Assembly: GCA_002793915.1 (NCBI GenBank)
Contig: PFEF01000005.1
Location: 7,571 to 71,570, forward strand
Length of the DNA: 64,000 nucleotides
Direction of reading: 5' to 3'
Origin: Candidatus Ryanbacteria bacterium CG10_big_fil_rev_8_21_14_0_10_43_42
GTDB taxonomy: Bacteria; Patescibacteriota; Minisyncoccia; Ryanbacterales; 2-02-FULL-48-12
Below are positions 2,708 through 58,053 of the stretch, in pieces (position 1 is the stretch's first letter; every line of letters starts with the position of its first letter). The notes under the pieces were generated by a model. That model was not told the DNA's origin. It saw nothing but the letters and a program-made list of their open reading frames with translations, and ran no database searches. A program made the position numbers and the translations under genes.

Positions 2708-5143
2708 ATGATACGCGCGCGCTTTTCCTTTATGCACATACTTTTTTCTGTCGTATTTGGCGTGGGAGGTATGCTGGCGTTATTTTTTACATTCACGTAT
2801 GCACAGTCATCAGCGTGTCATCTTTTGAATTCAAGCAATCCGGTTCCGCAGGGATATGGTGCCGCATATAATTCATTTTCAACAGGAAGAGAGCTTATTG
2901 CCGAGACGTTCTGTGACAATAATACCGTATCTGTTGTGGTAGGACAAAATGAAGATCAAAGTACGGTGGCGGTATGGAAACAGGGGTGGAAATGGAACGG
3001 ATCGTCGTGGTCGGAGATAACACTTTCCGGAACGCCGTTCACGGAAGATAGTAACTGGATTTTAGGAACGGGGCGCGTATTTATTCCGAGCAGTTCTTTT
3101 TCGGAAGGAGTACATGCGGTGGCGGTATTCGCCTGTGTTCTTGAGGGGGGTAATTGGCAATGCGGGTGTCGCGATAACTCTTGCGGTACCAGTAATTGGA
3201 TGCTTCAGCAATTTGCTGTTTCCTCAACACTTCCTCCGTCACCGAGCGGATGTATAGGCGCACCGCAGGGAGTGTGCGATGCGTACGATAACGGAACGGC
3301 AACGGGTACATACTGCAAAGACGGAAATACCCGTACCGTAACGGGGGATCCGGATTATGTATTTTGGGCCGCAAACAACACTATTTACCATCGTCTTTCC
3401 GCGCATGTCTTTATTGAGGTGTCTACGGGAGAATGGGATGCCGGACAAGCGGTATGCGAATCGGTGGAAAGCGCGCTTGATGTTGGCGGCGGCGGACAGT
3501 CATGTATAGGCGCACCGCAAGGAGTGTGCGATGCGTATTTAAATGAAACGGCCACCGGTACATACTGCAAAAATGGCATAATGAGTACCGTAACAGGGAC
3601 GCCCGAATATGTATATTGGGGTGCAAATAATACTATTTATCACCGCATGGCACACAATGTATTTGCCGATGTTCCCCAAGCAGATTGGGACGTATACGAG
3701 ACAGCATGTCAGGCAGGTACGACGCCAAACGGGTGCACGGGCGCGCCACAAGGAGTATGTACGGCATATATTAATGAATCGGCAACGGGCACGTATTGCA
3801 ATGACGGCGTGGAAAGTACCGTGACGGGAGATCCGGATTATGTATATTGGGGTGGGAACGATACCATTTATCATCGTCTTTACGATAGGGTTTTTAATAC
3901 GATTTCAAAAAGCGAATGGGACGGCACGAAAGCTATTTGTGCGGCGGAAGAATCGATTGCCAACTCGATAGTGCAGTGTAAGGGCGCGCCTCAAGGAGTG
4001 TGTGATGCGTATACAAACGGCATAGCAACGGGTACATACTGTAAAGACGGAAATACCCGTACCGTAACGGGAGATCCGGATTATGTATTTTGGGCGGGGA
4101 ATAATACTATTTATTATCGTCTGGGGACTGGTTCATTCGTACCGATTTCAGAGGCGGACTGGAATGCCGGACAGGCGGCATGCGGGAATGAATCGGTGCC
4201 ACGGTGCATAGGCGCGCCTCAAGGAGTGTGTGATGCGTATACAAATGGTACAGCAACAGGCACGTATTGTACGGATGCAAGTACCCGTACCGTAACGGGA
4301 GATCCGGATTATGTATTTTGGGGTGGGAACGATACTATTTACTACCGGCTTGCCGAAGGAGTATTCATACCCGTACCGCGTTCCGAATGGGATGCCGGGC
4401 AGAGTGCCTGTGAGGCAATGGAAAGCCAGCTTTCTTTGGGTACCGCATGCGTAGGCGCTCCGCAGGAATTGTGTACAGCATACAATAATGGAACGGCAAC
4501 GGGTAATTATTGTGCGCATGGCATAATGAGTACGGTTGCGGGAGACCCTGATTATGCATACTGGGGTCCTACCGATACTATTTATTACCGTCTTGCTCAT
4601 AACGTTTTTGTTCCGGTGGCGCGCAATGAATGGGACGCATATGAACAAGCATGCCTTCTTGGTATTAATAATGAAAACAGATGTGAGGGAGCATCAAGTT
4701 TTGTGTGTGACACCTATAAGGAGGGTATCGCTACAGGAACATATTGTCGGTATGGTGCGGAAAGTACCGTAACGGGAGATCCGGATTATGTATATGACGG
4801 TTTTTCCGACACTATTCACTATCGTTTGTGGGATGGTGTGTTTGAAACAGTGTTGAGTCCTAGTTGGGCGGCGGGACAAGCGGTATGTGCGTTGGAAGAG
4901 TCGGTGCGGAATACCTATACAACATGTACGGGCGCGCCGCAAGGGGTATGTAATGCGTATAATAACGGAACGGCAACGGGTACATACTGCAAAGACGGAA
5001 ATACCCGTACCGTAACGGGGGATCCGGATTATGTATTTTGGGGCGGGAACGATACCATTTACTACCGGCTTGATAAAGGATCTTTTGCGGAAATACCCCG
5101 TGCTACCTGGGATGCATTTCAAACACAATGCGATAGTATGTAA
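2708..5143 (+). CDS. secreted repeat protein: N-terminal signal/TM + 8 tandem ~80-aa four-cysteine repeats
   Basis: 811 aa. Repeat consensus C-x-GAPQGVCDAY-N-TATGTYC-DG-RTVTGDPDYVFWGGNDTIYYRL...W-D-Q-C. Repeats 1, 4 and 8 share a ~67-nt identical DNA stretch. Confidence 0.8.
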   Translation: MIRARFSFMHILFSVVFGVGGMLALFFTFTYAQSSACHLLNSSNPVPQGYGAAYNSFSTGRELIAETFCDNNTVSVVVGQNEDQSTVAVWKQGWKWNGSSWSEITLSGTPFTEDSNWILGTGRVFIPSSSFSEGVHAVAVFACVLEGGNWQCGCRDNSCGTSNWMLQQFAVSSTLPPSPSGCIGAPQGVCDAYDNGTATGTYCKDGNTRTVTGDPDYVFWAANNTIYHRLSAHVFIEVSTGEWDAGQAVCESVESALDVGGGGQSCIGAPQGVCDAYLNETATGTYCKNGIMSTVTGTPEYVYWGANNTIYHRMAHNVFADVPQADWDVYETACQAGTTPNGCTGAPQGVCTAYINESATGTYCNDGVESTVTGDPDYVYWGGNDTIYHRLYDRVFNTISKSEWDGTKAICAAEESIANSIVQCKGAPQGVCDAYTNGIATGTYCKDGNTRTVTGDPDYVFWAGNNTIYYRLGTGSFVPISEADWNAGQAACGNESVPRCIGAPQGVCDAYTNGTATGTYCTDASTRTVTGDPDYVFWGGNDTIYYRLAEGVFIPVPRSEWDAGQSACEAMESQLSLGTACVGAPQELCTAYNNGTATGNYCAHGIMSTVAGDPDYAYWGPTDTIYYRLAHNVFVPVARNEWDAYEQACLLGINNENRCEGASSFVCDTYKEGIATGTYCRYGAESTVTGDPDYVYDGFSDTIHYRLWDGVFETVLSPSWAAGQAVCALEESVRNTYTTCTGAPQGVCNAYNNGTATGTYCKDGNTRTVTGDPDYVFWGGNDTIYYRLDKGSFAEIPRATWDAFQTQCDSM

Positions 5144-5215: not shown

Positions 5216-5776
5216 TCAAAGGGGAGTTCCGGTGGGACAAAAACTTAATCCCAGTTCTTTGCCGATGTATTTATCATTGACGCTTTGTGGGACACGGACG
5301 GAAATTTTTAATGTACATGCCTGTTGTGGTGTAATATCCAGAAGCATAAGCAGGTCACGTTCCATTTCAGCACGTACAAAAGGGATATTGGAGCCGTTGT
5401 TTATGCTTACGGTAAAGCTTGTATCCGGCGGGTAATACAAAAGCGTATACGAAGTTTGTTCGTCGTGGAGAAATACAATATGTTCTTCGGTGATTATGAT
5501 CGTGGGATCCGTATAAAAATTATGTACGGACATTGGCTCACCGGACCAGTCGTTAACGGTGAACGTATCTCCCGTAGGTAAGGGGGGTGCGGTAATATTT
5601 CCGTCCCCGGTATTCGATCCCGGTATTGTTCCGGGAACGGGAAGCCCGTTTTGACCGGGATTAATTATGACGTCCGGAGGCGTCACGGATGTACGAAAAA
5701 AGAACGCGTATATACCGAAACCAGTAATACTGACTACGACTATAACTATAACAATAAGTAAATGGCGAATATTCAT
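5216..5776 (-). CDS. hypothetical membrane-anchored protein
   Basis: 186 aa with an N-terminal TM helix (LLIVIVIVVVSITGFGIYAFFF) and a Pro/Gly-rich segment. No recognisable domain. Confidence 0.5.
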   Translation of the reverse strand: MNIRHLLIVIVIVVVSITGFGIYAFFFRTSVTPPDVIINPGQNGLPVPGTIPGSNTGDGNITAPPLPTGDTFTVNDWSGEPMSVHNFYTDPTIIITEEHIVFLHDEQTSYTLLYYPPDTSFTVSINNGSNIPFVRAEMERDLLMLLDITPQQACTLKISVRVPQSVNDKYIGKELGLSFCPTGTPL

Positions 5777-35922: not shown

Positions 35923-36140
35923 AACGGAGAGCCTCGATCTACACTTGCTTTTTTTATGCGCTTTTGATACCCTTAAAAAAGATCCTCTCTTTACCTGCCG
36001 TAAGCGGACAGGGTCATAAGCAATTCTCTCCTCCTGAATTAAGCTGGCCTTGTCCGCTCCCTCTTCATTTTTCTCTGCCCTTCGGGGCTTTTCTTTTTGG
36101 TTGATTAATCATCTTTCATACGTTACATTATGAGTACCTA

Positions 36141-36214
36141 TTGCCGGATAGTGAAATGGTATCACGATTGGTTCTGGTCCAATTATTCTAGGTTCGAGTC
36201 CTAGTCCGGCAGCC
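36141..36214 (+). tRNA. tRNA-Gln (anticodon CTG), CCA encoded
   Basis: U1-A72 acceptor TGCCGGA/TCCGGCA, anticodon loop TTCTGGT, T-arm CTAGG-TTCGAGT-CCTAG. The antisense ORF 36109..36354 is spurious. Confidence 0.85.
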
Positions 36215-36321
36215 AGTTCGTGCGTAGTGTTTATGCTCAAGGAGCGTAGCGATCTCGTGCGCTCAAGGTGCGTTGTAGGCAACTTGTTATAAAAATATGG
36301 CGGTTGCGATAAAATAAAACT

Positions 36322-36942
36322 ATGAATAAAAAAACTAACATTCTGTGCATCCATGGAGGGATGACGTTTAAAAATAAGAAAGATTATCTAAGTTTCTTAA
36401 GGAATAGGAAGATATCGATTGATAAGAAGGTAAAGTGGTCGGGCAAGTATTTAGATGAGAAGCTAGGGCGAAATTTCCAGATCATTAGGCCAAGGATGCC
36501 GTTACAAGACAATGCTATGTACGAAGATTGGAAAATTCACTTTGAAAGACACCTTCCATTTTTGAAAGGGAAATTTATTCTCATTGGAGAATCACTCGGT
36601 GGTGTCTTCTTGGCTAAATGGCTATCAGAAAATAAATTACCTAAGAAAGCAGTTTCTGCATTCTTAGTATGTCCTCCTTTTGATAATGATCTGATTGGAG
36701 AAGATTTAGTTGGAGGTTTTAATCTATCTAAAGACCTGTCTAAACTCACTCACAACGCTAAAAATATTTATCTGATGTTCTCAAAGGATGATGATTGTGT
36801 CCCTGTGTCTCATGCTGATAAATATAGCAAGAAGCTACCCGATGCGAATATCATTATTTACAAAAGCAAGAACGGACACTTCAATATCTCCAGCTTTCCT
36901 GAAATTGTGAGATATATAAAGGATGACGTTCGTAAAAGGTAA
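36322..36942 (+). CDS. alpha/beta-fold serine hydrolase (RBBP9/YdeN-like), AT-rich
   Basis: 206 aa. ILCIHGG...ILIGESLGGVF nucleophile elbow (GxSxG), a late His (NGHFNI). GC is about 30-35%, versus about 45% for neighbouring genes. Confidence 0.6.
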   Translation: MNKKTNILCIHGGMTFKNKKDYLSFLRNRKISIDKKVKWSGKYLDEKLGRNFQIIRPRMPLQDNAMYEDWKIHFERHLPFLKGKFILIGESLGGVFLAKWLSENKLPKKAVSAFLVCPPFDNDLIGEDLVGGFNLSKDLSKLTHNAKNIYLMFSKDDDCVPVSHADKYSKKLPDANIIIYKSKNGHFNISSFPEIVRYIKDDVRKR

Positions 36943-37072
36943 GGTGTCTTGCCCGAGTGTTTGTTAACGTGCTCGAAGAGCGTCGAATTGGTAAAATAAA
37001 ATAGTTGAAAATAACCTTGCGGGGCTTGATCGACCACGGTTCTAGCTCGACTCGGCCAGCCCAAATTTTGCC

Positions 37073-37138
37073 CAAATCTTCGATTTGGATGCAAAACTTT
37101 AGGGCACTGGAGCTCCACAGAGCTTAGCGCATACATTA
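37073..37138 (+). repeat. 66-bp direct repeat, copy 1
   Basis: caaatcttcgatttggatgcaaaactttagggcactggagctccacagagcttagcgcatacatta. Differs from copy 2 at one position (c/t). Confidence 0.85.
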
Positions 37139-37263
37139 TAAAGAAACGCAGCGACTATACGATTTTGTTTACTTATAACCGAAAGGAGTTAGAAAACAAG
37201 AAGTGCCCTCGTGGTAAAAACTTCAGGTGCCAAAGCCCGCGCACGGGCGTGGTACATACCTGT

Positions 37264-37329
37264 CAAATCTTCGATTTGGATGCAAAACTTTAGGGCACTG
37301 GAGCTCCACAGAGCTTAGTGCATACATTA
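37264..37329 (+). repeat. 66-bp direct repeat, copy 2 (flanked by ggtgccaaagcccg...tacctg boxes at 37226-37262 and 37330-37360)
   Basis: 65/66 identity with copy 1. Flanking ~30-bp boxes are themselves repeated. Confidence 0.85.
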
Positions 37330-37383
37330 GGGTGCCAAAGCCCGTCGCGGCATACCTGTTGAGTGCAGTATCCAGAAAGAAAA

Positions 37384-37410
37384 ACCCACCCGCGAGGGTG
37401 GTTTTTCTTT
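37384..37410 (+). terminator. strong Rho-independent terminator closing the repeat region
   Basis: cccacccgcgagggtgg followed by TTTTTCTTTCTT. Confidence 0.7.
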
Positions 37411-37438
37411 CTTCCAAAATCAGCTATAATTTTAATTA

Positions 37439-37861
37439 ATGAAAACTGTTTCGCCGATTTCAAAGTACCTCCTTCTATTCGCTGTTCTGGCGTTCTTTCT
37501 TGTCAGTTTTTTTGGGTTGGGACATACAAACATGGCAACAGGTCCGGATGGACAAATGTCCTCAAGTAACTGCTTCATGCCCGGCATGACGGCATCGCTC
37601 TGTCAAATGAATCCATTTGAGCATATCGCCACGTGGCAGAGTATGTTCACTGCGATACCGAGTCAGAGTGATTTTGTCTTGCTTCTTTTTGCTTTACTCG
37701 CGCTTAGTGCTTTTTTCATTCGGTCATATCAGAGTATGGCCCCACCTCAAGCACTCGTCTTGTTACAACCAGTATTTGCATACTACAAACGGCGCATGCC
37801 AATAATGCATTCACTTCAAGAAGCATTCTCAAACGGCATTCTCCACCCAAAGATTTTCTAA
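37439..37861 (+). CDS. hypothetical membrane protein (Cys/Met-rich loop)
   Basis: 140 aa with two TM helices. Loop sequence SSSNCFMPGMTASLCQMNPFEH. First gene of the Dsb-containing operon. Confidence 0.5.
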   Translation: MKTVSPISKYLLLFAVLAFFLVSFFGLGHTNMATGPDGQMSSSNCFMPGMTASLCQMNPFEHIATWQSMFTAIPSQSDFVLLLFALLALSAFFIRSYQSMAPPQALVLLQPVFAYYKRRMPIMHSLQEAFSNGILHPKIF

Positions 37862-37936
37862 ATACAGCTGCTCTCGTTAGCAAAAAGCAAAGCGGTTTTT
37901 TGCCGTTTATTAATCCTTAATCATACTCAATTAATT

Positions 37937-38659
37937 ATGGAAGAATCATCAAAAACAAATATATTATCAATCCCCATAGCAATTGTCATTGCCGGAGTAC
38001 TCATTGCCGGAGCTGTTTACATGGGCACTAGTAATAAGGCGGGCATTGCAGAAAACCGGCAGCCGCAAGTTGCTGAACAACAGCAATCAGGAAATCTCGA
38101 TCAGATGGCTCCCATTACAAGCGAGGACCATATTCGCGGCAATCCGAATGCCCAAGTTATAATCGTCGAGTATTCCGATTACGAATGCCCGTTCTGTAAA
38201 GGATTCCATTTGACTATGCAGAGAATTGTTGATGAGTATGGCGACAAAGTTGCATGGGTCTATCGGCACTTTCCGCTCGATTCCATTCACTCAAAAGCGC
38301 GCTCGGAAGCGTTGGCGGCAGAGTGTGCCGCAGAGCTTGGCGGTAACGATGCTTTCTGGAAGTTTACTGATCGCTTCTTCGAGCTGACGCCGTCAAATAA
38401 TCAAACAGACACGGCTACCGTACTGCCGCAAATCGCGCGTGAGATTGGACTTAACGAACCACAGTTTGCTTCATGTCTCACAAGTGGAAGGTACGATGAC
38501 CACATTCAAGCAAATCTCGATAACGGTATTGCAACCGGCGGAAACGGTACTCCATGGAGTATTGTTGTTACAAAGAGTGGTAAAAAATACCCGCTCTCGG
38601 GCGCACAGCCGTACGCATCAGTGAAGCAGTTCATTGATCTTGCGCTCCAAGAGAAATAA
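37937..38659 (+). CDS. DsbA-family thiol:disulfide oxidoreductase (membrane-anchored)
   Basis: 240 aa. N-terminal TM helix; thioredoxin fold with CPFC active site (YSDYECPFCKGFH) and an inserted helical domain. Confidence 0.75.
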   Translation: MEESSKTNILSIPIAIVIAGVLIAGAVYMGTSNKAGIAENRQPQVAEQQQSGNLDQMAPITSEDHIRGNPNAQVIIVEYSDYECPFCKGFHLTMQRIVDEYGDKVAWVYRHFPLDSIHSKARSEALAAECAAELGGNDAFWKFTDRFFELTPSNNQTDTATVLPQIAREIGLNEPQFASCLTSGRYDDHIQANLDNGIATGGNGTPWSIVVTKSGKKYPLSGAQPYASVKQFIDLALQEK

Positions 38660-38661
38660 CT

Positions 38662-39222
38662 ATGAGCACCCATCTGCACAACATCAAACAAGCGTTTACG
38701 GAGGTGTTCGCACATACTTCCTACATCGCGCTCGCAAGCGTACTTACGCTTTTTGCGTTTGTGTTTGCAGTGTGGTTCCCGAATCTCGGACTCATCATTG
38801 ACGTATTCACCACTTCAAGTGCTCCGATAGTAGCAAAACTTAAACTCATAATGAGCTTACTTGGCGGTATCGGTACCAACTTTAGTGTGCTTTCTGCAGG
38901 ATACACAATTGCTATTGCCATTCTCTTCGGAATACTTGTCGCGATGATTGTCTATCTTATAAGGAAGAGACAAGCACAACTTGGAGGTGGCACTCTTGCT
39001 ACGGGACTTGGTGGCGTGTTCAGTGGCATCCTTGGTGTTGGATGTGCAGCTTGTGGATCCTTCCTCCTCATGACAATACTTGCTTCATTCGGAGCGACGG
39101 GTGCAATAGCGCTTCTACCACTCAAAGGAGGAGAGTTCGGTGTTGTGAGTGTCGGATTACTTGTTATATCACTTGCGATCACCGCCAGGAAAATTACTGA
39201 ACCATTAACATGCGAATCATAA
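38662..39222 (+). CDS. polytopic membrane protein with membrane-embedded CxxC (candidate DsbB/VKOR-analogous DsbA partner)
   Basis: 186 aa with 4-5 TM helices. GVGCAACGSFLL places a CxxC at a TM boundary. Starts 2 nt after the dsbA-like stop. Confidence 0.5.
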   Translation: MSTHLHNIKQAFTEVFAHTSYIALASVLTLFAFVFAVWFPNLGLIIDVFTTSSAPIVAKLKLIMSLLGGIGTNFSVLSAGYTIAIAILFGILVAMIVYLIRKRQAQLGGGTLATGLGGVFSGILGVGCAACGSFLLMTILASFGATGAIALLPLKGGEFGVVSVGLLVISLAITARKITEPLTCES

Positions 39223-39224
39223 CT

Positions 39225-39821
39225 ATGAACAAACAAACGATATTCGCTGGAACCATAGTTTTCTTGTTTATCGCGGGGGTATTCATTCTCGGAGATTCTC
39301 CTAGCGGACAAGACGAACATGGCATCAGCGGGGTTACGAAAACAGCACTTGCCGCGAAGTTCGAGGATTTATCACAAAACGGCAACTCATCTTGTTCGGG
39401 AGGATTCAAGGAATCCATAGCCGCCATGCCGTCCGAGGCACATCTCAAAGGGTCGTGCTGTTCGCCCATGAGCCTGCATCGCTACTCCGAACAAGTGGAA
39501 GGCCTGGAAAAATTCAAATCAGTTCCGGGGCAAGACATCAATCTCATTCCGAACAATCCATACGACATTGAAGTAGGACTCGCCCAAGAGTTCATCGGCT
39601 ACTACGACCTCATCCTGACGCCGGAAGAACAAGCGGCATACGACTACGCGATGCTGAACTCAAACGAAAGAGGTCCGTGCTGTTGCCAATGTTGGCGCTG
39701 GTATGTGTACGGAGGCTTGGGTAAGTACCTTATTCAAAATCACGGCTTTACTGGCGAGCAGTTGACTGAACTCTGGAATCTCTCTGACGGCTGCGGTGGA
39801 GATAGTGAGCATCGCCACTAA
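39225..39821 (+). CDS. secreted cysteine-rich protein
   Basis: 198 aa from ATG 39225. Signal/TM, then 10 Cys including CSGG, GSCCSP and GPCCCQCWRW. Confidence 0.5.
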   Translation: MNKQTIFAGTIVFLFIAGVFILGDSPSGQDEHGISGVTKTALAAKFEDLSQNGNSSCSGGFKESIAAMPSEAHLKGSCCSPMSLHRYSEQVEGLEKFKSVPGQDINLIPNNPYDIEVGLAQEFIGYYDLILTPEEQAAYDYAMLNSNERGPCCCQCWRWYVYGGLGKYLIQNHGFTGEQLTELWNLSDGCGGDSEHRH

Positions 39822-39840
39822 TACAAACTAAACAACCATT

Positions 39841-40296
39841 ATGAAAAATATACTTATCATCAGCGGTATCGCCATACTGCTTCTTGCCGGAGGGGTATGG
39901 TGGTCAAAGTCGCTCCAATCAAGCGATCCAAATGTTATCTCAACACGTGGCGTGCACTGGCATCCAGAACTGACCATCTACGTGAACGGCGAGAAGCAAG
40001 ATATTCCCCCAAACATCGGCATAGGGACGCAGTATGCATCCATGCCGACCTTCGACCAAAGCATGCGCATGACCGCTATGCACACGCACGAACCGGACGG
40101 TATCATCCATCTTGAGTTTCCCGGTCGTGTGACGCTAGAAGACACGACACTCGGCAACTTCTTCGCTATATGGGGCAAGGACATGATGAAGGACTTCGGA
40201 ACACTCACAAGCATGACCGTGAACGGAAAAGAAGCAAACGAGTTCGAGGCGTATGAAATGAAGGATGGTGATAAAATTGAGTTGAGGTACGAATAA
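39841..40296 (+). CDS. secreted Met/His-rich protein (possible periplasmic copper-binding protein)
   Basis: 151 aa with signal anchor. HWHPE...MRMTAMHTHEPDGIIHLE resembles CopC/PcoC-type Met/His motifs, but no firm family assignment. Confidence 0.4.
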   Translation: MKNILIISGIAILLLAGGVWWSKSLQSSDPNVISTRGVHWHPELTIYVNGEKQDIPPNIGIGTQYASMPTFDQSMRMTAMHTHEPDGIIHLEFPGRVTLEDTTLGNFFAIWGKDMMKDFGTLTSMTVNGKEANEFEAYEMKDGDKIELRYE

Positions 40297-40476
40297 ATCC
40301 ATGATCAAGATTCTTAATGAAAACAACGCAACGTTCTATTAGTGTGAAATCTGCGTCTATCGGTACAAAGAAAAAGAGTGGACGGAGAAATGCGAAGTGT
40401 GGCTTAAAGAGCACCACAGCTGCAATCTTGATATAACTTCTCACGCTTAAGAAAATAAATAATTTACACTCAACAA

Positions 40477-40512
40477 AAAAACCACCCTCGCATGTGGTTT
40501 TTTTGTTGATGA
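40477..40512 (+). terminator. Rho-independent terminator
   Basis: aaaaaccaccctcgcatgtggtttttttg. Confidence 0.6.
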
Positions 40513-40652: not shown

Positions 40653-41204
40653 ATGAGAAAGACATTTTCAATTATTATCATCATACTAGTCGTTGCCGGT
40701 TTTGGCGTAGCGTGGAAGGTTACGAAAAAAGAGGCGGCGATACCTGATTCGATCGTAACAAATTTTGAAGAATGTGTGGCGGCGGGTAATTTGGTTATGG
40801 AGTCATATCCCCGCAGGTGCCGGAATGCAGGAGAAACATACACCGAACATATAGGTAACGAGCTTGAAAAAGCGGATCTCATCCGTATTAATTCGCCGCG
40901 CCCCAATCAGAGTATTGAAAGCCCTCTTACCATTATAGGAGAAGCACGGGGCAGTTGGTTTTTTGAAGCAAGTTTTCCTGTATTTCTTACCGACTGGGAT
41001 GGTCGCATAATTGCCCAAGGAATTGCCACGGCCGAGGGAGAGTGGATGACAACGGACTTCGTACCGTTTAAGGCCGTACTTGTGTTTACGGTGGATGAGA
41101 ATGTCTACAGCACCAGAGGAACTCTTATTCTTCAAAAGGACAATCCTTCCGGACTACCCGAGCATGATGATGCACTTGAAATTCCGGTAGTGTTTGTAAA
41201 ATAA
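40653..41204 (+). CDS. secreted protein with Gmad2 (GerM-like immunoglobulin-like) domain
   Basis: 183 aa. N-terminal TM; C-terminal I.SP.PNQSIESPLTIIGEARGSWFFEASFPV..DWDGRII..G.ATAEGEWMT.DFVPF matches the Gmad2 pattern. Confidence 0.55.
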   Translation: MRKTFSIIIIILVVAGFGVAWKVTKKEAAIPDSIVTNFEECVAAGNLVMESYPRRCRNAGETYTEHIGNELEKADLIRINSPRPNQSIESPLTIIGEARGSWFFEASFPVFLTDWDGRIIAQGIATAEGEWMTTDFVPFKAVLVFTVDENVYSTRGTLILQKDNPSGLPEHDDALEIPVVFVK

Positions 41205-47099: not shown

Positions 47100-47480
47100 A
47101 TGAAAATAACACTTTGCGGATCATTAGGCGTAATGGACACTATTATGGCCATAGGGAAGGAGCTCAAACAATATGGCCACACCGTTTTCTTTCCCACCCA
47201 AGATAATAGGCAGGAAAATAACAGCGTGCAGAGAAAAACTTATATAAGTAAGCATATGAATAAAATAAAAAACTCTGATGCAATCTTTGTGGCGAATGTT
47301 GCAAAAAATGGTGAAAAGAATTACATTGGCGCACATACATTTATGGAAATGGGATACGCACATTATTTGGGAAAGAAAATATTCACCCTCAACGATCTTC
47401 CCGATCAGTCATATATAAAGGATGAGATTATGGTAATGAATAGCATGACTGTAGGAGGTGATTTTTCAAAACTTGTATAA
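47100..47480 (+). CDS. hypothetical protein (nucleoside 2-deoxyribosyltransferase-like fold?), AT-rich
   Basis: 126 aa. Starts MKITLCGSLGVMDTIMAIGKELKQYGHTVFFP. RBS aaagggga. GC is below 40%. Confidence 0.4.
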   Translation: MKITLCGSLGVMDTIMAIGKELKQYGHTVFFPTQDNRQENNSVQRKTYISKHMNKIKNSDAIFVANVAKNGEKNYIGAHTFMEMGYAHYLGKKIFTLNDLPDQSYIKDEIMVMNSMTVGGDFSKLV

Positions 47481-47492
47481 AATTAGTATCGC

Positions 47493-48119
47493 ATGAATAT
47501 AAAAAAGAACGGTATAACAAACGCAAATTCACATACACGTCGTTGTGCGTGGATAAAAGGAGACACCCTTATGACAGCATATCATGATGCTGAATGGGGT
47601 GTTTCTTTACATGATGATAAAAAATTATTTGAATTTCTTATCCTCGAATCTTTTCAGGCAGGATTAAGCTGGAAAACCATTTTATATAAACGAGATAATT
47701 TTAGAAAAGCATTTGATAATTTTGATATTAAAAAAATTTCATTGTATGACGATAGAAAAATACATACGCTTCTTAATGACCGCGGGATTATTCGTAATCG
47801 TCTGAAAATATGCGCCGCAATAAAAAATGCCCGTTTAATTATTAATATAAAAGAAACATACGGTAGTTTTGATGCGTATATATGGAACTGTGTTCCGGGA
47901 CTTCCACTGCAGAATGCATGGAAGCATGTAAGTAATATTCCTGCGCGCACAAAAGAATCCGATTTTATGAGTATATGTTTAAAAAAGTATGGATTTCAGT
48001 TTATTGGCTCGACCACGTGTTATGCTTTTATGCAGGCAATCGGAATGGTAAATGATCATACAATTGACTGTTTTAGGTATAAAGAGGTATGCGAGTCACG
48101 TTCTGTGTCTAATAAATAA
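47493..48119 (+). CDS. tag: DNA-3-methyladenine glycosylase I
   Basis: 208 aa. RRCAW...YHDAEWGV...LFEFLILESFQAGLSW.TIL.KR.NFRKAF and the C-terminal CYAFMQA..MVNDH..DCF zinc site. Very AT-rich. Confidence 0.85.
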   Translation: MNIKKNGITNANSHTRRCAWIKGDTLMTAYHDAEWGVSLHDDKKLFEFLILESFQAGLSWKTILYKRDNFRKAFDNFDIKKISLYDDRKIHTLLNDRGIIRNRLKICAAIKNARLIINIKETYGSFDAYIWNCVPGLPLQNAWKHVSNIPARTKESDFMSICLKKYGFQFIGSTTCYAFMQAIGMVNDHTIDCFRYKEVCESRSVSNK

Positions 48120-52735: not shown

Positions 52736-53116
52736 ATGAGTATGTATCTTTTCGCTCGATGGTTTATAAATGCATTCGCCATTATGGCGGTGGCATACCT
52801 TCTTCCGGGCATTGAAATTTCGGGGATCTATATAGGACTTATAGTGTCTCTTATAATAGGTCTTTTAAATGCAGTAATACGTCCTATACTGGTTCTTCTT
52901 ACTCTCCCTATAACCATTATAACGTTGGGATTTTTTATATTGGTCATAAACGGACTTCTTTTTTGGCTTACAGCAAGTTTCATAGATGGTTTTACTGTTC
53001 ATGGATTTGTCCCTGCTGTTATAGGCTCACTACTTTTATCGGTCATTAGTTGGATGGGCAATAGAATTCTATTAGACATAAAGGACGATGGTAAAAAAGA
53101 CAATAAAATGTACTAA
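52736..53116 (+). CDS. 4-TM 'phage holin family IV'-like membrane protein (PF04020-like)
   Basis: 126 aa. W.INA.AI..VA.LLPGI.I.G....L.V.L.IGLLNAV.RP.L..LTLP.TIITLG.F.LVINGL.FWL.A matches the family pattern. Confidence 0.55.
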   Translation: MSMYLFARWFINAFAIMAVAYLLPGIEISGIYIGLIVSLIIGLLNAVIRPILVLLTLPITIITLGFFILVINGLLFWLTASFIDGFTVHGFVPAVIGSLLLSVISWMGNRILLDIKDDGKKDNKMY

Positions 53117-53892: not shown

Positions 53893-54417
53893 TAGGGAGT
53901 CTGTATAAGCTAATGTGGCATTGACGAAAGGGGCGATATTTCGTATACTGTACAGGATCCGCGAATTGTTTCTTGACTTGTCTTATCCACAGTTTTTAGG
54001 GCAAGTTCCTTTGGAAATAGAGGAAATTATTCTTATAATGGGTGTACCTTTCGCGTAAGCGATGTTGCGGTGAGCGGAATGTAGCGCTTTTTGTTTCTTT
54101 ACTATCCGTCTATACAATATATTAGCTTGAATGATGGTGGCATATTTTCACTTGAAATATATGTACATGTCGGTATCATTCAGGTCGATATGTTAGTCCG
54201 GAGAATGTAATCCGGTTCTGCAAGACTGAACATTAACAAATGAATAGTGAGCAAAAAGACGGCACAGAAATGTGTGAAGTTTTTTCATTTGTTATTCGAC
54301 AGAGTTATTTCACAAGTCGATTACATTATTAGTTCGGATGTGCGTGTTGTGCGTATGGTCGGTATGTGCAACATATTACACACATCCAAAAAAACATTAC
54401 TATTAGATTTTAAGCAT

Positions 54418-57400
54418 ATGAGTAGATATCAGAAGATGGTGCGAAAAGCCACTTCCGTATTTGTGAGCTTGACGACGACTATCTGGCTTGCCGGATTCGG
54501 TACACTTGTACCTTTTGCCGCTAACGCGCAATCGGTAGCGGATTTGCAGGCGCAGATTAACGCTCTCTTGGCGCAGATTACGGCGCTTCAAGCGCAGTTA
54601 GCAGCTGGCGGCGGATCAGTTTCCACCGGCGCTGTATCGTGTAACTTTACACGAAGTCTTACAATCGGAGTGCAGGGCGAAGATGTTCGTTGCTTACAGC
54701 AATACCTTAATGGCGCAGGCCACACGCTTGCTTCCAGCGGCGCTGGATCACCGGGAAGCGAGACCACATACTTCGGTCCCATTACCCGCGCGGCAGTATC
54801 AAGTTGGCAGGCGGCAAATGGCGTGAGTCCAACGGCAGGATATTTCGGTCCTATTTCGATGGCGAAATATAATGCGTTAATTGCGGCCATTCCTCCGGTA
54901 ACGGGTGGTGGTACCGGAACAGGCACGGGCACCGGAACAGGCACGGGCACAGGTACTACCGGAACGGGTATTACGGTAGGATCAGCATCCCAGCCGGCGG
55001 CAACGCTTGCGGTACAAAATGCTATCCACGTTCCATTTACCTCGTTTACCTTAACGGCATCGTCCGACGGTAACGTATTGGTAGATTCCATAACGGTGGA
55101 ACGAACGGGCTTGGCAAATGATGCCGCGTTTGCAGGAGTGGTTCTCTTAGATGAGAACATGATGCAAATTACGCAGAATCCAAAAACATTTAATTCTAAT
55201 CATCAGGCAATCTTGACCGATGATTTCACGGTTCCCGCCGGACAGACCAAGCGGTTTTATCTCGCAGGTAATATGGCGGCAAGTCTTACGGCATACGCAG
55301 GACAGGTGGCAAACCTTCGCTTGGTAGCGGTAAATTCAACCGCGCAGGTGAATGGCGCACTTCCTATAGAAGGAACGGGACACACTATCAACGCTTCCCT
55401 TTCCGTAGGTTCGGTAACGCTTACCCGCGGTACGAACGATCCAAATACGGGCGTTACGAAAGAAGTGGGAACAACGGGCTATACGTTTTCTTCCATAAAG
55501 GCAACAGCCGGATCCGCGGAAGATATGCTGGTCAAGTCCATTCGATGGAACCAGTCCGGATCAGCCTCCAAGGATGATTTGGAAAACGTTATAGTAGTTG
55601 ATACAAAAACAGGAAATGAATATACGCCGACGGTTTCTTCCGATGGCAAATACTACTCTGCCGATTTTGGTAGCGGTATTTCTATCAAGAAGGGAGAAAA
55701 TACGGAAGTATATATCAAGGGAGACATTAAGTCGGGTTCCGGTCGTACGGTAGACTTCGACTTATACCGCTATGATGACTTTGTATTCGAAGGTAAGACC
55801 TTTGGTTACAAGATTAAACCATCTTCAACCGAAACATCGGCTGACAACGATGACGACTCCGAATTCCAGGATTCACAACCACGTTATGATGCAAGTCAGG
55901 TTGAAATCGGCACGGGAAGTCTTCGCGTTGAGAAATCAAATGACGTGCAGGCAAGTAACGTTGCAAACGGTGCCGACGGCGTAGAACTTGGTTCGTTCAA
56001 GTTTGATGTAGACGGCGAGGCAATTAGCTTCACGCAGTGGGTTCTTACGATCGCAACAACCGATGCCGACAGTGGTGGTGAGAACAGTGTTCTTACCAAC
56101 ATCACGGTATACGACTCAAACGGTAATGCTGTAGCTGGCCCTACTGATCCAAATTCAGCAGGAAGCGCAGTAACCATTACCGATTCCATAACGGTACCGG
56201 TGGGTGATAATATCTACACGGTGCGCGGTGACTTAAATAACAACTGGCAAAACAACGATACGATTATTGTTTCCTTTACCCCATCTAGCGCATTATCGCA
56301 GGTAACGGGTGATACAACAGGAAACACTATCACTCCAACGCCTTCCACGGCTGTTTCGGCAAACGTGCAGACAATTAAGGCGGGAGGTCTTGTTGTAACG
56401 CCTTCAACTTCGCTCGCAAGCCAGACCCTTATCGAAGGATCAAATGGCGTTGAGCTCGGACGATTCGTTCTTGATGGAACCGCTTCCGGTGAAGACATTA
56501 AGATTACGGTCGTGAAGATTCTTGGTGATGTAACAGGTGCAGACATCAACGATTTCGTAAGTTTGCAATTGTTTGACGGCACAACGGCTTTGAACACCGG
56601 TTCAAATGTTCTCCAGCCGGCGGCAACTGCGGATGGCACCGACCTCGTCCTCTCCTTCACACTTGATTCTCCGGGACTTATTATTCCAAAGGGAAGCACA
56701 AAGATTATTTCCCTGAAGGGTAATATTACCACCGCGGCAAACGATGGCGATCAGGCCAAATTTGACTTCTCGGCAAGCGTTTCCGATGGTGACTGGGGTA
56801 CATCCGGTGTAGATTCCGGGCAGGATATTGTCGAAACCTTCTCAACGGCGGCAGGTGCAACAATCACCACGCAATCAGGTGGCGGTTGGAGCGTTTCAGC
56901 GGCACCTTCCAAGCCAACAGAGAAATGGGTAACGGCGGGAGCAACGGGTGTAACATTGAACGTACTTCGTTTCAACTCAACGTCTGAAGAATTTGCTCTT
57001 ACCGATCTTCGCTTACAGATCGACACAACGGGTTCATCTACGGGTGCCGACTTCACGAAGATCTATCTCTATGATGGAAGTACGCTCTTGCAGTCCAAGA
57101 CACCTGCCTTTACGAATGGCGTAGAAGACTTTACTTTCCCAACAACGGGAACAGGGGCCTTTGTTATTCCGAAAGATGATTTCAACGAGCTTACTATCAA
57201 GGCTGATCTCGCAACCATTGGCGCATCCCAGCCAGGTACGGCAGGACAGCTTGTGGGTGTTGATTACGATGGTGCTAATTCAACAAAGAATAAGGCACAG
57301 GGTAAGGCATCCGGAACAAGTAAGCATTCCAGTACGGCATCTGACGTAACCGGAAACGGTGTTGTCTACTTCCGTTCGGTACCAACCATTGAACGGGTAA

Positions 57401-58053
57401 GTCTTCCACAAACAACGCTTACATCTGGTAATCATGTGCTTTATCGGTTCAAGATAACGGCAGACCCAGCATATGATGTTGCATTGCATAAAGTAGCCTT
57501 TAGTGTTGCAACAACCGGTCCGGCAACTATGGCTTTCTCCGGTTCTCCAGCAAACTTCACGCTTTGGAACACAACTGATAACAAGAGAGTATCAGCGGCG
57601 ACAGGTACAACAAATGCGATCTATGACGACATTAACTACTACAATGCAAACAGTCAGTTAATTGTTCGTATTCTCGCAGATACCACCGATTATTCCAGCG
57701 CATGGGTAACTATTCCGGCAGGTCAGACACATACCTTTGATCTTCGCGCGGATATTATCAGTGATGGTTCTGGTGATTCGGTGTCTACGAAACTCCTTGG
57801 TGATGATGCGCGGGACCCAAGACTTTCGTTAACGGGATCGGCTGCCGTTACCATGCAGACTGTTGCTGCGATAGACGATGGTCATAATGCGGGTGGAACC
57901 TCGAACGTTGCTTCCAGTTCCAACTTCATATGGTCAGACTTCTCTACTGACGCAACGACGACGCATGCTATAACCACGCATGACTGGATGAACGGCTTCA
58001 AAGTGCCGGGACTCCTCTCAACGGGTCTTGACTCATCGACATTGTCGAACTAG
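54418..58053 (+). CDS. large cell-surface protein (signal anchor, coiled coil, PG_binding_1-like domain, (GT)n linker, ~1000-aa Ser/Thr/Gly-rich beta region)
   Basis: 1212 aa from ATG 54418. SVADLQAQINALLAQITALQAQL coiled coil; CLQQYLN...YFGPITRAAVSSWQAANGV PG-binding-like; GTGTGTGTGTGTGTTGTG linker; no Cys thereafter. Confidence 0.7.
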   Translation: MSRYQKMVRKATSVFVSLTTTIWLAGFGTLVPFAANAQSVADLQAQINALLAQITALQAQLAAGGGSVSTGAVSCNFTRSLTIGVQGEDVRCLQQYLNGAGHTLASSGAGSPGSETTYFGPITRAAVSSWQAANGVSPTAGYFGPISMAKYNALIAAIPPVTGGGTGTGTGTGTGTGTGTTGTGITVGSASQPAATLAVQNAIHVPFTSFTLTASSDGNVLVDSITVERTGLANDAAFAGVVLLDENMMQITQNPKTFNSNHQAILTDDFTVPAGQTKRFYLAGNMAASLTAYAGQVANLRLVAVNSTAQVNGALPIEGTGHTINASLSVGSVTLTRGTNDPNTGVTKEVGTTGYTFSSIKATAGSAEDMLVKSIRWNQSGSASKDDLENVIVVDTKTGNEYTPTVSSDGKYYSADFGSGISIKKGENTEVYIKGDIKSGSGRTVDFDLYRYDDFVFEGKTFGYKIKPSSTETSADNDDDSEFQDSQPRYDASQVEIGTGSLRVEKSNDVQASNVANGADGVELGSFKFDVDGEAISFTQWVLTIATTDADSGGENSVLTNITVYDSNGNAVAGPTDPNSAGSAVTITDSITVPVGDNIYTVRGDLNNNWQNNDTIIVSFTPSSALSQVTGDTTGNTITPTPSTAVSANVQTIKAGGLVVTPSTSLASQTLIEGSNGVELGRFVLDGTASGEDIKITVVKILGDVTGADINDFVSLQLFDGTTALNTGSNVLQPAATADGTDLVLSFTLDSPGLIIPKGSTKIISLKGNITTAANDGDQAKFDFSASVSDGDWGTSGVDSGQDIVETFSTAAGATITTQSGGGWSVSAAPSKPTEKWVTAGATGVTLNVLRFNSTSEEFALTDLRLQIDTTGSSTGADFTKIYLYDGSTLLQSKTPAFTNGVEDFTFPTTGTGAFVIPKDDFNELTIKADLATIGASQPGTAGQLVGVDYDGANSTKNKAQGKASGTSKHSSTASDVTGNGVVYFRSVPTIERVSLPQTTLTSGNHVLYRFKITADPAYDVALHKVAFSVATTGPATMAFSGSPANFTLWNTTDNKRVSAATGTTNAIYDDINYYNANSQLIVRILADTTDYSSAWVTIPAGQTHTFDLRADIISDGSGDSVSTKLLGDDARDPRLSLTGSAAVTMQTVAAIDDGHNAGGTSNVASSSNFIWSDFSTDATTTHAITTHDWMNGFKVPGLLSTGLDSSTLSN

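Follow-up and report, generated by a model that had tools for sequence, protein, structure and literature searches.

We propose that the block at 36142-40512 of a 64,000-nt stretch of Candidatus Ryanbacteria bacterium CG10_big_fil_rev_8_21_14_0_10_43_42 (a groundwater member of the Parcubacteria; contig PFEF01000005.1; hereafter the window) is a composite, decaying islet on the 3′ side of a tRNA-Gln(CTG) gene, made of a cassette module, a hydrolase module and junction debris. We assign this reading a probability of about 0.68. Module 1 (~37349-40450) would be a copy of a cargo cassette that is widespread in Parcubacteria and consists of a hairpin-terminator-promoter head, orf140, a gene for a DsbA-like protein and genes for CxxC membrane, Cys-rich and His-rich proteins; the window copy would have lost its ATPase gene and any recombinase and would hence be fixed in place. 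Module 2 (36216 to ~37348, ~1.13 kb) would be extra DNA wedged between the tRNA and the head of the cassette. It would carry the gene of a small hydrolase that moves between bacteria of the Candidate Phyla Radiation (CPR, or Patescibacteria) and DPANN archaea, together with ~400 nt of debris: a possible decayed copy of a tRNA end, the relic of a small gene and a private duplication of a 66-nt unit plus an adjoining box. By analogy with known islands, we infer that the DNA was acquired by site-specific integration; the order of events in the history of the islet is likewise a reconstruction.

The original prediction, made from the letters of the window, had read the pattern as integration at a tRNA 3′ end or as a duplicated small RNA or regulatory element. 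The first of these ideas draws its support from relatives and not from the evidence then put forward: from the variability of the site, the serine recombinases found there, the cassette linked to tRNA-Gln, and the arrangements in L050/L051, L053, L058, L075 and L103. L-numbered labels (L008, L047, L058 and so on) denote loci or contigs compared with the window, and the set of related loci that was searched amounts to 1.18 Mb.

Variable DNA on the 3′ side of tRNA-Gln

The block begins at the last base (36215) of tRNA-Gln(CTG), which ARAGORN and Rfam (tRNA, 61.6 bits) place at 36142-36215; features described here lie on the plus strand unless stated otherwise. The tRNA is followed, as originally described, by a hydrolase gene (36322-36942, PF06821). 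We compared this locus with its counterparts in related genomes, a comparison that the original prediction had itself pointed to. The order FtsE-FtsX-tRNA-Gln(CTG) is kept in seven of them (L008, L009, L011, L015, L017, L019 and L020), and the genes 3′ of the tRNA differ in each. In all seven the hydrolase is absent and the cassette does not stand beside the tRNA, so that the block is not syntenic among the relatives compared. Even the nearest of these genomes are far removed (FtsX identity of 72% at most), and in protein searches FtsX identity falls to 40-55% within Parcubacteria.

Two of the seven relatives (L009 and L019) carry a large serine recombinase, with Resolvase, Recombinase and Zn_ribbon_recom domains, that abuts the tRNA-Gln. 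The three recombinases of the relatives are only 32-38% identical to one another, and a tblastn search with three serine recombinases found none in the 64-kb window. Taken together, the gene content of these loci suggests that the 3′ side of tRNA-Gln is a hot spot of recombination or integration in Parcubacteria. As a separate observation, an open reading frame (ORF) resembling GIY-YIG proteins overlaps the tRNA-Gln of L015.

The scope of these comparisons is as follows. Contigs L001-L007 come from the same strain and are 100% identical over the region; they carry no information on conservation. Over 36100-37460, three independent assemblies from JGI match at 100%, which rules out an assembly artefact for the repeats described below. 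The sequence collections that were scanned seem not to contain the contigs of the window organism itself: an exact 22-mer gave 0 matches, and the best FtsX and hydrolase matches were ~70% identical. Negative results from these collections for the 66-nt unit therefore cover other organisms only.

The cassette and its linkage to tRNA-Gln

The cassette comprises five co-oriented ORFs (37439-40296). The original prediction had called it a Dsb operon, a name that fits one gene: a 240-amino-acid (aa) thioredoxin-fold protein encoded at 37937-38659 has the only DsbA-like domain (PF13462, E = 1.2e-21; PF01323, E = 1.2e-15). Neither Pfam nor NCBIfam has a match for the other four. They are orf140, a membrane protein and the first gene of the cassette (37439-37861); orf186, a multi-pass membrane protein with a CAAC motif (38662-39222); orf203, a Cys-rich secreted or membrane protein (39210-39821); and orf151, a His-rich exported protein (39841-40296). 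No DsbB, VKOR or DsbD partner is recognisable in the cassette with Pfam or NCBIfam, and orf186, with its CAAC motif in a membrane protein, may act as the redox partner of the DsbA-like protein. All 115 homologues of orf140 are of Parcubacteria type. In every contig that was fetched the orf140 homologue is followed by the DsbA-like gene and then by a CxxC membrane protein, and the usual genes further downstream encode CsoR (PF02583), a P-type ATPase, a cupredoxin, a multicopper oxidase, DUF305 and PAP2 proteins. From this context, and by analogy with known metal clusters, the cassette may have a role in copper or disulfide handling.

The module is found repeatedly beside tRNA-Gln. In L049, L050, L051, L052 and L059 a tRNA-Gln gene, with either a CTG or a TTG anticodon, lies 150-205 nt 5′ of the orf140 homologue, and the genes that precede this tRNA differ in each of the five. 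L050 and L051 share a segment of 8.6 kb (97% identity) that opens within two different tRNA-Gln genes, near position 50 of each, and has a large serine recombinase at its far end. In L053, 2.7 kb of DNA with MarR, MatE and flavodoxin-like genes separates an intact tRNA-Gln(TTG) (2467-2538) from a tRNA relic, the orphan 3′ fragment GGTTCGAATCCTACTGCGGCAGC (~5300-5322), which stands directly before the cassette. Judged from its gene order, L053 looks like a textbook case of tandem accretion at a tRNA; tandem island arrays at tRNA and tmRNA genes have been noted elsewhere (PMC9580842). The cassette also occurs without any tRNA, in L046 and L047.

The 5′ boundary of the cassette can be placed by homology. 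Similarity between the window and the sequences that trail tRNA-Gln in relatives begins at ~37341-37349 (nhmmer against L052, E = 1.5e-11), and this start coincides with the 3′ end of the second of two boxes described below. The homologous head, which is also present in L049, L050, L052 and L059, consists of a small hairpin, a terminator and a TATAAT box. The hairpin is the palindrome ATACCTGTTGAGTGCAGTAT at 37350-37373, identified from the relatives' sequences and nhmmer, and L049, L050, L052 and L059 show compensatory changes in it (CTGC/GCAG versus CCAG/CTGG). The terminator is intrinsic and predicted to act on both strands (37380-37412); its stem at 37386-37401 folds better than expected (z = -5.6). 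Compensatory changes were seen in both stems, hairpin and terminator, of the head module as a whole (37350-37438). The putative -10 box, read from the sequence as TATAAT at 37425-37430, is kept as TATAAT or TATACT in relatives and ends 8 nt before the orf140 ATG in the window and in L047, a spacing which suggests that the cassette mRNA is leaderless or nearly so.

The distance from tRNA to orf140 is 1223 nt in the window versus 150-205 nt in the relatives. By this comparison ~1.13 kb (36216-37348), namely the hydrolase gene and ~400 nt of non-coding sequence, would be extra DNA in the window. Within the spacer between tRNA and hydrolase (36216-36321) there are weak local resemblances only: nhmmer found no significant match there to the relatives' tRNA trailers, and the stretch 36226-36255 is weakly similar both to their 5′ trailer and to 36956-36983, in gapped alignments of marginal significance (p ≈ 0.02-0.05).

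At its other end the cassette appears truncated. The window is 82% identical to L047 in nucleotide sequence over 37476-40437 (blastn), and the homology stops at 40437, where L047 has its P-type ATPase. Comparison with L047 identifies 40301-40450 as the pseudogene of a small Cys-rich ORF of the pattern CEICxxxY…C…W[C/L]KEHHSCNLDITSHA, with an in-frame TAG (40340-40342) and one Cys-to-Leu change; the L047 ORF is intact and precedes the P-type ATPase. This small ORF has no Pfam match, and a related copy in L046 stands 3′ of the ATPase. The pseudogene probably marks the truncated right end of the cassette, and a strong terminator is predicted at the end of the block (40470-40509). Because the ATPase has been lost, the small ORF pseudogenised and the recombinase is absent from the window, the cassette would be a truncated, immobilised remnant. 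Its proteins also differ in their relation to L047: orf140 is 66% identical in aa sequence, as opposed to 86-92% for the other four (orf186, 86%; orf203, 92%; orf151, 91%), and orf151 is 86% identical to its counterpart in L054. The window cassette thus has the look of a mosaic relative to L047.

The block is also heterogeneous in composition, to a real but modest degree. The guanine-plus-cytosine (GC) content of the cassette genes is 44.8-50.1%, and that of the hydrolase gene is 35.8%, where genes average 44.3% (z = -2.3 among 56 ORFs). The contrast is weaker than first described, with a hydrolase GC content above the 30-35% originally given for it. Within the cassette only orf203 (z = +2.4) and orf151 (z = +3.2) are outliers in GC content at third codon positions (GC3), and these are the highest GC3 values in the window. 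Sliding-window analysis, a check that the original prediction had named, likewise picks out 38.0-40.25 kb, with tetranucleotide z-scores of ~2.2-2.3 that rank 12th to 18th of 251 windows. Elsewhere in the window, other low-GC ORFs lie at 47100-48119 and 52736-53116 (z = -2.2 to -2.9), and the two most deviant stretches in tetranucleotide usage, 55500-58000 and 3000-5000, lie in an ORF of 1232 aa (54355-58053) and in one of 811 aa (2708-5143).

An alternative is that tRNA-Gln and cassette are joined by old vertical synteny in a normal operon, and that the hydrolase segment alone was inserted later. The linkage is seen in six loci that span 60-66% orf140 identity, the hairpin-terminator-promoter head is conserved, and the 64-kb window lacks a recombinase, all as this alternative would have it. 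We nevertheless consider it unlikely. The genes 5′ of the tRNA differ at every locus and both isoacceptors, CTG and TTG, are used; the 97% identity of L050 and L051 sets in only at the tRNA, and both have a recombinase; the nearest genomes (L008, L009 and L010) lack the cassette after FtsX-tRNA-Gln, and L046 and L047 have it away from any tRNA. The mosaic identity to L047 and the GC3 and tetranucleotide outliers in the cassette argue in the same direction.

The hydrolase gene and the repeats that follow it

Module 2 of the proposed islet starts with the hydrolase gene, which encodes 206 aa with a Pfam match to Ser_hydrolase (PF06821, E = 5.5e-10). The closest homologue for which flanking sequence is available is that of L058, 79% identical in aa sequence. 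The nhmmer alignment between the two loci spans 36305-37015 and thus includes a 3′ flank (36943-37015) that ends in AAAATAGTTGAAAATAAC. In L058 this shared flank is directly followed by a copy of the 3′ end of the local tRNA-Ser, and another copy lies just 5′ of the gene. In the window, local alignment finds a degenerate tRNA-like sequence after the flank (37038-37066), a possible decayed copy of an attachment (att) site. The original prediction had taken it for a copy of the 3′ half of tRNA-Gln: GGTTCTAGCTCGACTCGGCCAGCC (37040-37066) does match the T-arm and acceptor of the tRNA at 17/24 positions, with a local score of 10.

The non-coding spacer after the hydrolase gene is 496 nt long and closes with the bidirectional terminator, in agreement with the ~500 bp and strong terminator first described. 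It holds two direct repeats of 66 nt, copy A (37073-37138) and copy B (37264-37329), that a repeat search confirmed as 65/66 identical; the single difference is a C-to-T change in copy B. Each unit contains two palindromes, CAAATCnnnGATTTG and TGGAGCTCCA. The boxes reported on either side of the second copy are also real: the 14-nt sequence GGTGCCAAAGCCCG recurs exactly at 37226 and 37331, where it opens box 1 (GGTGCCAAAGCCCG...ACATACCTG, 37226-37262) and box 2 (GGTGCCAAAGCCCG...GCATACCTG, 37331-37358), both found by repeat and exact-match searches and both ending in CATACCTG. In order, the parts read [66][87 nt][box][66][box]. The insert of 87 nt (37139-37225) resembles L055 and appears to be what remains of a small gene's 3′ end together with a hairpin. 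In an nhmmer search of 1.18 Mb, 37160-37216 matched L055:597-653 (81% identity, E = 1e-5), where a 43-aa ORF ends and a hairpin lies; L055 also has a close hydrolase homologue (79% aa identity).

The 66-nt unit occurs in just these two copies in the 64-kb window, and shuffled sequences gave none. Outside the window, nhmmer with the unit, the boxes and the flanks against the 1.18 Mb of related loci returned nothing beyond the 87-nt relic matching L055; exact 37-mer and 22-mer searches of IMG/VR and JGI metagenomes gave 0 matches for the unit, as did blastn against phage genomes. A six-frame translation of 37016-37350 had no hit at E ≤ 10 among 5.8 billion proteins, and the spacer ORFs have no Pfam match. 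An Infernal/Rfam scan, which had been suggested for the spacer, was unproductive: at E ≤ 1 the whole block yielded tRNA-Gln itself and sub-threshold look-alikes of RNAI and Phe-leader, which are matches to terminators.

Several identities for the repeats are disfavoured. A miniature inverted-repeat transposable element or other dispersed repeat, raised originally as a different interpretation, is made unlikely by the presence of only two, adjacent copies and the lack of terminal inverted repeats, with no dispersed copies in the window, the related loci, IMG/VR or the JGI metagenomes. A diversity-generating retroelement is ruled out by the single C/T difference, and no reverse transcriptase is found among the annotated neighbours. 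Two 66-nt copies only, with no cas genes among the annotated neighbours, rule out a CRISPR array, and the lack of a hydrophobic peptide rules out a type I toxin-antitoxin system. The searches and folds brought up no evidence that the unit has a function. Most likely it is a lineage-private tandem duplication that would be functionally neutral. The simplest history would be one tandem duplication of [66 + box], after which the relic was inserted or retained and one box suffered an insertion or deletion.

Several points weigh against the islet reading. The window lacks an integrase or recombinase as well as a clean att duplication, so that integration is argued by analogy, and the nearest genomes, at ~70% FtsX identity, include none above 90% average nucleotide identity for a presence/absence test. 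Linkage between tRNA-Gln and the cassette could in part reflect old synteny and not repeated integration. The hydrolase gene has ordinary GC3 (z = -0.6) and the tetranucleotide deviation of its stretch is unremarkable (z ≈ 0.7), which suggests that the gene is old here or intrinsically AT-rich. A direct repeat flanking it (36226-36247 versus 36956-36983) was treated as marginal (p ≈ 0.04). The tRNA-like fragment does not rise above chance by itself: ~12% of 496-nt tiles or shuffles score as well (p ≈ 0.12), no tRNA 3′-half copy with three or fewer mismatches was found, and an Rfam scan cut down to 37030-37075 recognised no truncated tRNA. In the 60 nt after the L058-homologous flank only 0.33% of 60-nt tiles score as well (p ≈ 0.003), with a positional prior that was chosen post hoc and without which the fragment is non-significant. 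As a decayed att site the fragment is thus suggestive at best, and we put the odds that 37040-37066 is a genuine att relic at roughly even. Finally, the copy number of the 66-nt unit is known within 64 kb only, and the spacer, taken whole, is more strongly folded on its plus strand than shuffled sequences are (z = -5.7).

This last point bears on another explanation, in which the pair of 66-nt units, boxes included, represents a small RNA in two copies or a tandem leader with a cis-regulatory role, of the attenuator or riboswitch kind, that either acts on the cassette 3′ of it or is produced from the transcript of tRNA-Gln and hydrolase. In addition to the fold of the plus strand, the strong terminator that closes the spacer just 5′ of the cassette would suit it, as would the two palindromes per unit and the 65/66 identity that the copies have kept though the flanking boxes have diverged. 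We find it improbable, and a step less likely than old synteny, and the part of the original prediction that raised it is not borne out. By itself the 66-nt unit shows no unusual degree of structure on either strand (z = -1.4). The sole strong hairpin is long and imperfect (37059-37105; fold of 37050-37140, -28.1 kcal/mol, z = -3.5), and the edge of the repeat cuts it: the 3′ two-thirds are the start of copy A, whereas the 5′ arm stands before the repeat and is missing at copy B, which therefore cannot fold in this way. The units have no Rfam match and no homologue in the collections or related loci searched, and relatives keep the terminator and promoter without them. Moreover, the -10 box of the cassette lies 3′ of the terminator, which places the repeats outside its leader, and no promoter-like site is predicted before either copy.

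Mobility of the hydrolase and comparison with known systems

The islet reading also draws on what the hydrolase gene does elsewhere. It has 2295 homologues, more than 100 of which are 65-80% identical and spread across several CPR phyla and proteins annotated as Woesearchaeota; the corresponding figure for FtsX drops to 40-55% within Parcubacteria. Adjacency to tRNA genes in general is not enriched (6/80 metagenomic loci versus ~5 expected). Adjacency to tRNA-Gln alone is enriched: L086, L129 and L132 have one within 600 nt of the hydrolase, versus ~0.24 loci expected by a Poisson estimate. In L075 (19-330) and L103 (456-1510) the gene lies 3′ of tRNA-Tyr(GTA), where 4-5 degenerate T-arm-like fragments form an array around it. 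These are variants of GGTTCGACTCCTA, and the 60-130 nt that separate them have no coding capacity. Direct repeats of 13-93 nt bracket the hydrolase in 7/78 loci (9%), versus 1.0% of control positions in the same loci. Across this range of settings the hydrolase appears to be a promiscuous, horizontally mobile gene.

Individual loci add detail. L113 has a 93-nt direct repeat (94% identical; 1197-1289 and 1978-2070) on either side of the hydrolase, and L120 a promoter-like one of 33 nt (3966-3998 and 4799-4831). In L132 a tandem duplication of ~108 nt, resembling the C-terminal end of a small GIY-YIG-type gene, lies between tRNA-Gln(TTG) and the hydrolase (~3670-4000). In L124 (3544-4618) a Gmad2-domain gene stands directly 5′ of the hydrolase homologue and is 63% identical to window 40653-41204; in the window the Gmad2 gene (40653-41204) and the hydrolase stand apart, with the cassette between them.

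In at least 11 distinct loci the hydrolase lies within same-strand arrays of ~95-nt hairpin elements. These have conserved ATATAAC...GTTAT ends and an asymmetric internal loop, and their inner stems are compensatory in 15/25 pairs, an anatomy that resembles that of integron attC sites. The contigs are low in GC; examples are found in L056 (160-253, 1030-1153 and 4511-4609), L082 (1547-1650 and 2534-2637), L096 (2123-2224, 2303-2400 and 2504-2602), L118 (847-951 and 1735-1839) and L121 (680-757 and 1544-1648), and further ones on L077, L097, L098, L107, L108 and L110. Archaea, too, are reported to have integrons, among them the DPANN phylum Nanoarchaeota (PMC9668308). These arrays raise the possibility that the window hydrolase, too, arrived as an integron cassette (ORF plus attC) at a secondary GTT site in or near the T-loop or trailer of tRNA-Gln, with 36951-37066 as the degraded attC; an imperfect inverted repeat right after its stop codon would fit. 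We judge this very unlikely. A pattern scan of the window for attC-like elements was empty and the profile of the hairpin family gave its best match at E = 5, at another position; the post-stop inverted repeat folds no better as single-stranded DNA than shuffles (z = +0.6, -0.6). An attC remnant seen by eye at 37040-37075, from its likeness to an attC-like core, gave no match to the family profile. No IntI turned up, and no search for tyrosine recombinases was made on the window or the attC-bearing loci.

Least likely of all is the idea that the 66-nt copies are attL/attR or the terminal repeats of a small element whose interior was mostly deleted: they are near-identical, 191 nt apart and bracket a foreign relic (the 87 nt homologous to L055), and short direct repeats do bracket hydrolase homologues elsewhere, but the window hydrolase is not bracketed by them, boxes 1 and 2 are duplicated in register with them as a simple tandem duplication predicts, and the unit is unlike tRNA or any att-like sequence in relatives.

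A bolder version of the islet reading can be drawn from the same loci. The hydrolase would travel in CPR bacteria and DPANN archaea as a minimal cassette without an integrase that is captured by different recombination systems, which may include integron-like attC arrays, tRNA 3′ ends (Gln, Ser and Tyr) and short locus-specific direct repeats. In Parcubacteria the flank of tRNA-Gln would be a dedicated landing pad for such cassettes and for serine-recombinase islands, and the 66-nt region a capture scar or a still-active recombination substrate, not neutral debris. We offer this as speculation that is probably wrong in this full form, though somewhat less improbable than any of the rival explanations above.

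The composite islet that we favour belongs with tRNA-linked genomic islands and islets, an established concept. It shares with them a position directly 3′ of a tRNA, sporadic occurrence among relatives and mosaic content; the relatives supply an orphan tRNA fragment (L053), copies of tRNA ends (L058), T-arm-like arrays (L075 and L103) and integrase-class genes at the tRNA-Gln site. It departs from them in its size of only ~4.3 kb, in the lack of an integrase or a clean att direct repeat in the window and in the weak compositional signal of the hydrolase part. Islands that target tRNA genes more usually use tyrosine integrases, unlike the large serine recombinases of the relatives. Those enzymes recall the elements moved by phiC31/Bxb1-type integrases, by ccr of SCCmec and by TnpX-type proteins: they abut tRNA-Gln in L009 and L019, and the Dsb/copper cassette of L050 and L051 ends with one. 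Long direct repeats are not left behind by serine recombinases, which agrees with the missing clean att repeats of the window. The window, for its part, has no such gene, and the three recombinases of the relatives are only distantly related.

Likeness to integron cassettes lies outside the window, in homologues on other contigs within same-strand arrays of ~95-nt hairpins with AAC...GTT ends and in the 65-70% identity that the hydrolase shares with Woesearchaeota-annotated proteins; the window itself lacks attC-like elements, and the hairpin family is likened to attC by anatomy and not by a dedicated attC model. The cassette itself is comparable to CsoR/CopA copper clusters with periplasmic thiol-disulfide oxidoreductases, in that the five-gene module of relatives precedes metal genes. 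It differs in that the window copy lacks all of the metal genes and four of its five proteins have no recognised domain.

The mobile DNA of CPR (Patescibacteria) genomes is poorly charted, and literature searches returned no account of islands targeted to tRNA-Gln or of serine-recombinase elements in CPR bacteria. The islet would be a new example of a well-known kind and brings no new principle. The more interesting by-products lie outside the window, in the tRNA-Gln-linked Dsb/copper module with serine recombinases and in the attC-like hydrolase arrays. The comparison yields three observations that can be tested: that tRNA-Gln would be a recurrent insertion site in Parcubacteria, that the Dsb-like/copper module would be mobile cargo shared among them, and that CPR bacteria and DPANN archaea would exchange a small hydrolase, which in some lineages sits within integron-like arrays.

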